Of a DNA stretch of 64,000 nt, positions 17,896 through 18,773 are shown piece by piece. The stretch lies in assembly GCF_055900595.2 (NCBI RefSeq), contig NZ_CM148325.1. One strand, 5' to 3'. The notes under the pieces are model-generated. The model was not told where the DNA came from and did not search any database. It saw only the letters and a program-made list of their open reading frames with translations. How positions within the stretch are numbered: position 1 is the stretch's first letter; each line of letters opens with the position of its first letter. The position numbers and the translations under genes are program-made.

Positions 17896-18040
17896 ATTAC
17901 GCTCCTGATTGTTGCACTTAGTGTCTCTCTTCGAAGCGGATAAGTCAAAAACATATATGACTTAACGAATATGTAAGTGTAGAGAAAGGTATAGGTGTGA
18001 ATTAAGCGTTGGGTGTTCATTTGAAAGGAAGTCTGAATCA

Positions 18041-18128
18041 GGATGTAAAAAAACCGACTTTGCGTCGGTTTTTTACTCTTCAGCCAGAGTTGGTGGCTCT
18101 GGCTGGAGTGAGAATGCCCACATCTAAC
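18041..18128 (-). ncRNA. agrA/agrB-type repeat unit, copy 1 (candidate antisense sRNA to dinQ); exact ends and strand uncertain
   Basis: About 88-bp unit (ggatgtaaaaaaaccgactttgcgtcggttttttactcttcagccagagttggtggctctggctggagtgag..catctaac) repeated at 18274 and partly at 18531 inside the dinQ leader; starts with a palindromic hairpin flanked by A/T runs. Confidence 0.4.
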
Positions 18129-18273
18129 GGTTCAATACTATTAGCCAGTGGCTAACATTGCAAGCGTTAGCGATTTCTTCAGCTGGCGAAGGGACAGTTT
18201 GCTATACATGGTGGTGAAAGAGGATTGATATACTTTCATCGGGTCGCTGCCGTACCAAGCCTTGTCCGAATCC

Positions 18274-18362
18274 GGACGTAAAAAAACCGACTTCGCGTCG
18301 GTTTTTTTACTCTTCAGCCCAGAGTTGGTGGCTCTGGCTGGAGTGAGATAGCCATCATCTAA
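18274..18362 (-). ncRNA. agrA/agrB-type repeat unit, copy 2 (candidate antisense sRNA to dinQ)
   Basis: Near-identical second copy of the 18041 unit including the hairpin aaaaaaccgacttcgcgtcggttttttt. Confidence 0.4.
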
Positions 18363-18427
18363 CACATCAATGCTAATACCATACTGAAACCATTGCAAGG
18401 ACATGCTGGTTTTATAACCCGCAAGTA

Positions 18428-18443
18428 CTGTATGATTATCCAG
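18428..18443. promoter_or_regulatory. Candidate LexA (SOS) box upstream of dinQ
   Basis: CTGTATGATTATCCAG fits CTG-N10-CAG with a TA-rich centre. Confidence 0.55.
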
Positions 18444-18530
18444 TTGGCTCTGAGGCATTTTCACTCTGGCAATGCGCATAAACGCTTTCAAAGTCCTGAT
18501 CAGTGGTACGGGTGGTGCCGTTAACTGATG

Positions 18531-18562
18531 CTCTGGCCGGAGTGAGATTGCCCACATCTAAC
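18531..18562 (+). repeat. Partial third copy of the agr-type repeat inside the dinQ 5' leader (predicted antisense target)
   Basis: ctctggccggagtgagattgcccacatctaac matches the 3' part of the units at 18090 and 18325. Confidence 0.45.
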
Positions 18563-18636
18563 AATGAGGCATGCGCCGTGACAGGCAGTGGATGAGTAAG
18601 CGGATGCATTCTCACTCCATCGCATGGAGAAAACGG

Positions 18637-18720
18637 GTGATTGATAAAGCAATCATCGTTCTTGGGGCGTTAATTGCGCTGCTGGAACTGATCCGCTTCC
18701 TGCTTCAGCTTCTGAACTGA
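18637..18720 (+). CDS. dinQ: DinQ small membrane toxic peptide (27 aa, GTG start)
   Basis: GTG-initiated ORF VIDKAIIVLGALIALLELIRFLLQLLN, a single-TM hydrophobic peptide; LexA-box-like site about 200 bp upstream. Confidence 0.75.
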   Translation: MIDKAIIVLGALIALLELIRFLLQLLN

Positions 18721-18738
18721 TAGCGGAAACGTAACTAA

Positions 18739-18765
18739 GGGCAAAGAGCACACCACTCTTTGCCC
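18739..18765. terminator. Hairpin terminator between convergent dinQ and gor
   Basis: Perfect 10-bp stem gggcaaagag / ctctttgccc with 7-nt loop, followed by TTTAACATTT on the plus strand. Confidence 0.55.
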
Positions 18766-18773
18766 TTTAACAT

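Follow-up and report, generated by a model that had tools for sequence, protein, structure and literature searches.

The genes dinQ, agrA and agrB of the arsR-gor region of Escherichia coli K-12 have been described in two studies (Weel-Sneve 2013, PMC3567139; Kristiansen 2016, PMC5066626). AgrB is the sole functional antitoxin there, AgrA being inert, with neither productive binding nor repression (PMC3567139, PMC5066626). With its 5' end, AgrB acts on a processed form of the dinQ transcript, the +44 form, by re-closing a hairpin that sequesters the Shine-Dalgarno (SD) sequence (PMC5066626). Here we examine positions 17896-18772 of a 64,000-nt stretch of DNA, hereafter the window (contig NZ_CM148325.1, NCBI RefSeq assembly GCF_055900595.2), and conclude with high confidence that they hold a rare allele of the type I toxin-antitoxin locus dinQ-agrAB of E. 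coli, most likely working as in K-12. The locus, its parts and its mechanism are already known, having been published in 2013 and 2016 and being present in Rfam, NCBIfam, RefSeq and T1TAdb. The new point brought by the comparison of alleles is a co-variation of antitoxin and target, with an apparent switch of the cognate antitoxin copy.

The stretch 17896-18772 is the gap separating arsR from gor. On its left stands a 117-residue open reading frame (ORF; 17542-17895, minus strand) annotated arsR both in a record that is 100% identical and in K-12, and on its right a 450-residue ORF (18774-20126, minus strand) annotated gorA or gor. The gene order in MG1655 is gor, dinQ (b4613), agrA (b4712), agrB (b4713) and arsR, and the window carries the reverse complement of that order, with arsR and gor both flanking as expected of the DinQ/AgrB family. 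The region was matched in 5,422 of 5,426 complete E. coli genomes, and its location was chromosomal in all of them. Every testable defining feature of the family is found in the window locus. A first-pass annotation, made from the letters of the sequence, had proposed a dinQ toxin with an antisense arrangement; synteny, an identical peptide, two Rfam AgrB matches and an identical LexA operator now make the locus an ortholog of the K-12 one. All the elements listed in that annotation lie where it placed them or a few bases away, and its picture of an SOS-induced toxic peptide whose leader is targeted by small RNAs (sRNAs) from the repeats coincides with the published K-12 model (PMC3567139, PMC5066626).

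The dinQ coding sequence (18637-18720, plus strand) runs from a GTG start to a TGA stop and encodes a single hydrophobic helix of 27 residues, VIDKAIIVLGALIALLELIRFLLQLLN, the very hydrophobic ORF reported at first pass. It has the character of the DinQ family peptides and passes the equivalog model NF041472 (toxin_DinQ) of NCBIfam with 54 bits for a cut-off of 30. The peptide equals K-12 DinQ residue for residue, and one accession, WP_001295215.1, is common to the 100%-identical record and a K-12 derivative. Two nucleotide differences separate the coding sequence from that of K-12 with no amino-acid change, and the peptide is invariant over Escherichia species amid variable surrounding DNA. 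A hairpin terminator separates the convergent dinQ and gor genes (18737-18767; 12-bp stem, -18.6 kcal/mol), which a consensus scan also reported as a terminator-like site of 14 pairs.

Upstream of dinQ, the LexA operator TACTGTATGATTATCCAGTT (18426-18445, plus strand) overlaps the -10 hexamer (TATGAT, 18431-18436) and the +1 position (18443) of the promoter. The full 20-mer shows no difference from the K-12 dinQ operator, for which a heterology index of 4.83 has been published (PMC3567139), a value that we take over by virtue of this identity. Its CTG-N10-CAG core (18428-18443) is the sole copy between arsR and gor and starts 209 nt 5' of the GTG, in agreement with the LexA-type box announced about 200 bp upstream. 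The bare core is not significant, as 30 copies occur in the 64-kb window for about 16 expected, and the meaning is therefore carried by the surrounding 20-mer; by sequence identity, this predicted site places LexA over the promoter as in the family. The published numbering, with the GUG at +195 (PMC5066626), could be transferred along a span free of indels relative to K-12, and the GTG at 18637 then sets +1 at 18443. The primary transcript, or +1 form, would extend over about 330 nt (18443-18772, plus strand), with the processing site U44 at 18486 according to the same numbering.

Two repeat units occupy the space between arsR and the dinQ promoter. Aligned with two 1-nt indels, units 18041-18128 (88 nt) and 18274-18362 (89 nt) agree at 81 bases, and their homology reaches 18031-18143 against 18264-18378 (87% over 115 columns, E = 7e-35, blastn). 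The first-pass description of two near-identical 88-bp repeats holds for their presence and is slightly generous for their likeness, as it is in the antisense segment that the differences are concentrated. The third, partial copy also noted there does lie inside the dinQ leader (18530-18562, 33 nt) and corresponds to the published AgrB target; it matches the arsR-proximal unit at 31/33 positions and the dinQ-proximal unit at 29/33. Each unit opens with a AAAAAAACCGAC-N5-GTCGGTTTTTT(T) hairpin (18045-18074 and 18278-18310) that presents a stem and a U-run on both strands. These hairpins had been read as bidirectional terminators; on the minus strand they serve the two sRNAs as Rho-independent terminators, and on the plus strand termination is possible judging by the sequence.

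Both units give full-length matches on the minus strand to the Rfam AgrB family (RF02891, gathering score 40). The arsR-proximal sRNA, at the AgrB position, spans 18045-18127 (90.0 bits over model positions 1-84; transcription start site (TSS) at 18127), and the dinQ-proximal sRNA, at the AgrA position, spans 18278-18362 (90.7 bits; TSS at 18362). Transferred through alignment, the MG1655 annotation runs from 18127 to 18047 for agrB (b4713) and from 18362 to 18280 for agrA (b4712). Reading by eye and by K-12 homology, we assign to agrB a promoter at 18135-18163 (minus strand), with a -35 TTGCAA (18158-18163), a 17-nt spacer and a -10 TAGTAT (18135-18140), hexamers and spacer being as in K-12. 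The agrA promoter would lie at 18370-18398 (minus strand), with a -35 TTGCAA (18393-18398), a 17-nt spacer and a -10 TAGCAT (18370-18375), again with the hexamers of K-12 and with one change in the spacer. In K-12 the agrB TSS was located by primer extension (PMC3567139). The window sRNAs thus have the individual promoters and Rho-independent terminators of the AgrB family, with promoters and terminator hairpins conserved with K-12. They are divergent from dinQ and do not overlap it, both agr copies lying on the minus strand 5' of the plus-strand +1 at 18443.

Antisense complementarity to the dinQ leader extends to 31/33 positions in the 5' 33 nt of AgrB (18096-18128) and to 29/33 in the corresponding AgrA segment. 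The pairing suggested at first pass between minus-strand repeat transcripts and the leader is indeed predicted by RNAduplex, at -63.0 kcal/mol for AgrB and -53.0 kcal/mol for AgrA. That the sRNAs target the leader also agrees with the published model, with the reservation that in K-12 AgrB is the only active one and works by re-closing the SD hairpin rather than by simple targeting.

The dinQ leader of the window contains the four elements defined in K-12 (PMC5066626), all on the plus strand. Sequence 1 (U16-C28, 18458-18470) pairs with sequence 2 in the +1 RNA, the off state. The AgrB target, or third repeat (G88-A119, 18530-18561), holds sequence 2 (18536-18548) and an allele-specific variable segment at about 18548-18558. 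The anti-SD element, sequence 3, stands at its published position (18609-18620), and sequence 4 (18624-18629), which contains the SD motif GGAG (18626-18629), forms the sequestering hairpin with sequence 3. In the minimum free energy (MFE) structure of the window +1 RNA, nucleotides 17-28 pair with 94-105 and the SD hairpin (173-178:182-187) is closed. In that of the +44 RNA, nucleotides 97-105 pair with 168-176, a helix between sequences 2 and 3 that replaces the SD hairpin, and when nucleotides 88-119 are blocked the SD hairpin 173-178:182-187 closes again. The mutually exclusive helices 1:2, 2:3 and 3:4 of the family are all found in these predicted folds, and the folding of the window RNA is consistent with the published switch, short of proving it.

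From orthology with K-12 we infer for the window allele SOS induction, processing at +44, membrane toxicity of DinQ, expression of the sRNAs and repression by AgrB. LexA bound to the operator over the dinQ -10 and +1 would keep transcription low until SOS induction. The +1 transcript would be translationally inert, the pairing of sequences 1 and 2 leaving sequence 3 free to close the hairpin over the SD. Loss of the first 43 nt, which yields the +44 form, would free sequence 2 for sequence 3 and open the SD hairpin; the 27-residue DinQ would then be made, enter the inner membrane and depolarise it. Constitutive AgrB, from the arsR-proximal repeat, would pair through its 5' ~33 nt with leader nucleotides 88-119, thereby withdrawing sequence 2 from its pairing with sequence 3; the SD hairpin would re-form and block translation. 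In this scheme AgrA, from the dinQ-proximal repeat, would be a paralogue with a weaker match.

The window allele is distinctive in sequence. Its intergenic region is about 91% identical to that of K-12 and most E. coli, and a match of at least 99% identity was obtained in 11 of 5,422 records only. For an E. coli, the whole neighbourhood (16400-20400) stands unusually far from K-12, with identities of 92.9% for arsR, 95.3% for arsB, 96.0% for gor and 94.1% for rlmJ; since the flanking genes are similarly diverged, we attribute the differences to a divergent lineage and not to a decaying locus or to relaxed constraint. The differences from K-12 are not distributed at random: the variable segment of agrB has six (18114, 18115, 18117, 18118, 18120 and 18121), and the dinQ leader has another six (18548, 18549, 18551, 18552, 18554 and 18555). 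An offset of exactly 434 nt brings the two sets into register, and at five of the six positions the new base is the same in both. The variable segment thereby changes from GAGAGTTCTTATC in K-12 to GAATGCCCACATC in agrB and from the same GAGAGTTCTTATC to GATTGCCCACATC in the dinQ target, and that of agrA reads GATAGCCATCATC in both K-12 and the window. A further change in the leader, at 18569 (A127G), restores pairing with the changed variable-segment bases in a local hairpin, and an A/T swap at 18743/18761 keeps the stem of the dinQ/gor terminator. The window allele can be regarded as a natural compensatory-mutation experiment, which lends independent support to the pairing of AgrB with dinQ.

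Going beyond the window, we sampled about 20 loci and searched allele-specific 51-mers over the 5,426 complete E. coli genomes; the counts that follow are marginal and do not describe joint genotypes. The K-12-type target GAGAGTTCTTATC is present in 1,682 genomes, a second type, T2 (GAATGCCATTATC), in 1,818-1,918, a third, T3 (GATAGTCGTCATC), in 418, and the O55/O157-type target (GAGTACCATTATC) in 310. The window-type target (GATTGCCCACATC) is found in 13/5,426 genomes, and ETEC6333 has a close relative of it (GAATGCCCACATC) that matches its own agrB copy at 33/33 positions. At least seven target variants exist in Escherichia. In the sampled loci with an intact agr copy, one copy is always predicted to pair at -55 to -72 kcal/mol, and the non-cognate copies mostly pair at -45 to -53 kcal/mol, E. 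whittamii reaching -62. In a set of 14 distinct Escherichia haplotypes, the best agr copy in cis has a mean of 2.1 mismatches against 4.2 across alleles, and none of 20,000 shuffles reaches the observed total, in a permutation that ignores shared ancestry among haplotypes. This natural co-variation supports the pairing of sRNA and target.

The cognate copy is not the same everywhere. In T2, T3 and E. albertii it is the copy at the agrA position that matches well; those that have a copy at the agrB position carry the K-12 type there. A T2-type 51-mer at the agrA position occurs in 1,665-1,681 genomes, matching the size of the T2 target class, and we infer from these sequences that the cognate copy occupies the agrA and not the agrB position in about a third of E. 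coli genomes. The distribution over genomes suggests that the roles of AgrA and AgrB known from K-12 cannot be extended to the species as a whole, a point of importance when K-12 results on SOS-induced membrane toxins, persistence or DNA-damage tolerance are transferred to clinical lineages. A literature search found no description of co-variation between agr and dinQ alleles; PMC7232551 and PMC8594479 mention the locus and not such co-variation, and T1TAdb records that AgrA paralogues exist and selects the more stable pairing (PMC8594479).

Recombination between the repeats offers a route to such changes. A fusion junction, GATAGCCCACATC, was matched in 808 of the 5,426 genomes (51-nt junction, at least 99% identity), and in the two loci examined (AR_451, about 330-510 of locus L015, and SK1144, 1280-1620 of locus L021) an agr copy is joined to the dinQ leader inside the 33-nt repeat. 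Neither has the LexA box or the promoters of dinQ and the agr genes, arsR and arsB are absent as well, and both encode DinQ with an L15Q change. RefSeq still names the promoterless remnant 'damage-inducible type I toxin DinQ' in these two records. The fusion allele indicates that the repeats do recombine, which makes gene conversion a plausible path to concerted changes.

We can then propose, as a hypothesis to which we give slightly less than even chances, that the ~10-nt segment 3' of the constant GGAGUGAGA core is a polymorphic specificity determinant, with AgrA as a reserve or alternative antitoxin and gene conversion as the likely driver. In the predicted structures the variable segment pairs with the 5' tail of the Agr sRNA and forms one arm of the local leader hairpin, and it is not needed for the helices with sequence 1 or sequence 3. 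It may be free to co-vary with the sRNA because it lies outside the part of the target that pairs with these two sequences. If the hypothesis is true, AgrA is no dead paralogue, the statement that AgrB is the antitoxin is specific to strains such as K-12, and both sRNAs may repress in the window allele.

Within the same locus identity, a different sharing of roles, in which both sRNAs are antitoxins in the window allele or AgrA contributes substantially, is the most serious competitor of the K-12 scheme, and we hold it to be possible though rather unlikely. The 29/33 match and -53.0 kcal/mol of the window AgrA exceed the 26/33 and -46.6 kcal/mol of the K-12 AgrA, which is experimentally inert (PMC5066626), and a role for AgrA also accords with the agrA-position copy being the best or only match in T2, T3 and E. 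albertii and with the T2-type copy at this position in 1,665-1,681 genomes. AgrB is nevertheless clearly the better partner in the window, with two mismatches fewer and a duplex stronger by 10 kcal/mol, and the extra mismatches of AgrA are located in the variable segment, the apparent determinant of specificity. That the locus is decaying or silent in the window lineage, a relic more than a working module, is very improbable. Decay does happen elsewhere, as witnessed by the fusion junction in 808/5,426 genomes with two promoterless L15Q loci and by the loss of the start codon in one Escherichia species representative, and the 91% identity to K-12 might invite the same reading here. Against it, the window has every element intact, from the operator and promoters through the four leader elements and the SD to the GTG and the terminators; the peptide is unchanged, the stem changes at 18743/18761 in the terminator and at 18569 in the leader hairpin are compensatory and not disruptive, and the flanks are similarly diverged (arsR 92.9%, gor 96.0%).

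The most sceptical account, that the repeats are generic terminators or intergenic repeats devoid of antisense role and that the hydrophobic ORF arose by chance, can draw on the commonness of short ORFs and of CTG-N10-CAG motifs (30 in the window) and on weak Rfam matches to an unrelated sRNA, Spy779816, over the terminator hairpin only. It is refuted for practical purposes, and we consider its probability negligible: the sRNA and peptide family models score far over their cut-offs, the peptide is invariant over Escherichia species amid varying DNA, the antisense segment and its target co-vary, and the K-12 ortholog has been characterised experimentally (PMC3567139, PMC5066626). Several points nevertheless weigh against a working dinQ-agrAB locus of K-12 type. 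Its expression, processing and toxicity would all be carried over from K-12, the AgrB-dinQ duplex has 2/33 mismatches for 1/33 in K-12, and the permutation test leaves shared ancestry aside. The simple consensus scan flagged neither the dinQ and agr promoters nor the agr terminators; it returned the dinQ/gor terminator and one unrelated promoter-like site only, and it missed the agr elements because their promoters (9/12 overall, 4/6 in the -10) and A/U-rich stems fall outside its rules. The MFE structure of the window +44 RNA pairs the SD with C89-U92, extending the helix between sequences 2 and 3, and does not leave it open, whereas selective 2'-hydroxyl acylation analysed by primer extension (SHAPE) found the SD open in the K-12 +44 RNA (PMC5066626). 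As the K-12 +44 MFE structure, moreover, fails to give the published 2:3 helix, thermodynamic prediction is only a partial guide, and we do not rely on MFE details of the open state.

The arsR-gor region also keeps traces of its own past. The spacer between agrB and agrA contains a relic of gor coding sequence (18203-18255, minus strand), not a functional part of the locus, with 83% identity over 53 nt to gor 18989-19041 in the same orientation (E = 1e-9 against the whole window). Its minus-strand translation, KVYQSSFTTMY, aligns to Gor, and the relic is more degraded in K-12, where it has a 4-nt deletion. These features suggest that the repeat array arose by a duplication taking in part of gor. 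Some genomes show two places matched by the intergenic region. A second dinQ-like copy in the window was considered and rejected: with this region as blastn query, the whole 64-kb sequence gave only the gor match at E <= 1e-3. The Rfam search likewise found no other AgrB-family sRNA in the 64-kb window. Its Spy779816 matches, and its plus-strand AgrB matches of 24-30 bits, below gathering score, cover the palindromic terminator only and were discarded as hairpin artefacts.

In the non-K-12 records examined, RefSeq annotates dinQ and neither of the agr sRNAs. In some records, 'hypothetical proteins' are annotated on top of the agr copies or the dinQ leader, at 18141-18479 (minus strand) in the window and likewise at 839-1012 (minus strand) in three sampled loci (L013, L017 and L019). 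WP_162754263.1 spans agrA, its promoter and the gor relic, and WP_001296816.1 and WP_001297979.1 are antisense to the dinQ leader; all are probably spurious ORF calls. Among the other loci, that of E. coli 2018-05-2CC (L020) encodes DinQ with R20L next to a single agr copy, and arsC adjoins it, arsR and arsB being absent from between. Escherichia sp. MOD1-EC7003 (L011, about 5090-5300) has a dinQ remnant in which the GTG start has become GGG, with several amino-acid changes and with unrelated sequence replacing the leader 5' of the anti-SD element; the surroundings of this remnant showed no agr copies. A scan of species-representative genomes for an exact 20-mer returned eight loci, all in Escherichia or Escherichia-like contigs, the exact pattern being unable to find diverged dql genes. 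Elsewhere in the window, the annotation of the 100%-identical record gives a chu/shu heme-uptake cluster. Two more Rfam families reach their gathering scores there, the shuA/chuA 5' UTR thermoregulator (7770-7801, plus strand; 60.1 bits for 58) and the ES036/CssrF sRNA (27141-27181, minus strand; 37.9 bits for 37.6).

Compared with known systems, the window locus is closest to dinQ/agrA/agrB of K-12: both lie between arsR and gor with the same gene order and strands, and they have in common the 27-residue peptide, the LexA operator, the four-element leader, the sRNA promoter hexamers and the terminators. The window locus differs from K-12 by its variable antisense and target segment, which in agrB and the dinQ leader alike reads GA(A/T)TGCCCACATC where K-12 has GAGAGTTCTTATC, by its matches to the target (31/33 for AgrB and 29/33 for AgrA, against 32/33 and 26/33 in K-12) and by its better-preserved gor relic.

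The tisB/istR-1 pair, an SOS-induced type I toxin-antitoxin system of E. coli, resembles it in combining a small LexA-controlled toxin of the inner membrane, a primary transcript that stays inert before its 5' end is processed and a divergent, non-overlapping sRNA whose pairing site in the 5' untranslated region (UTR) precedes the ribosome-binding site. The modes of action differ: a ribosome standby site is what IstR-1 blocks, and AgrB shifts a helix within the target RNA so that the SD hairpin closes. The sequences are unrelated, and tisB/istR-1 has no tandem sRNA duplication. The zorO/orzO and shoB/ohsC systems have a comparable layout, with a divergent, non-overlapping sRNA gene 5' of the toxin gene and a long 5' UTR that needs processing (PMC5397157, PMC8594479); unlike dinQ, they are not SOS-regulated, are unrelated in sequence and do not sit at the arsR-gor locus. 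Finally, the dql genes, carried by chromosomes and plasmids of Enterobacteriaceae (Kristiansen et al. 2016, PMC5066626), share the peptide type and the four-element logic of the 5' UTR. They are paralogues at other sites with diverged peptides, unlike the window locus, which is a true dinQ ortholog.

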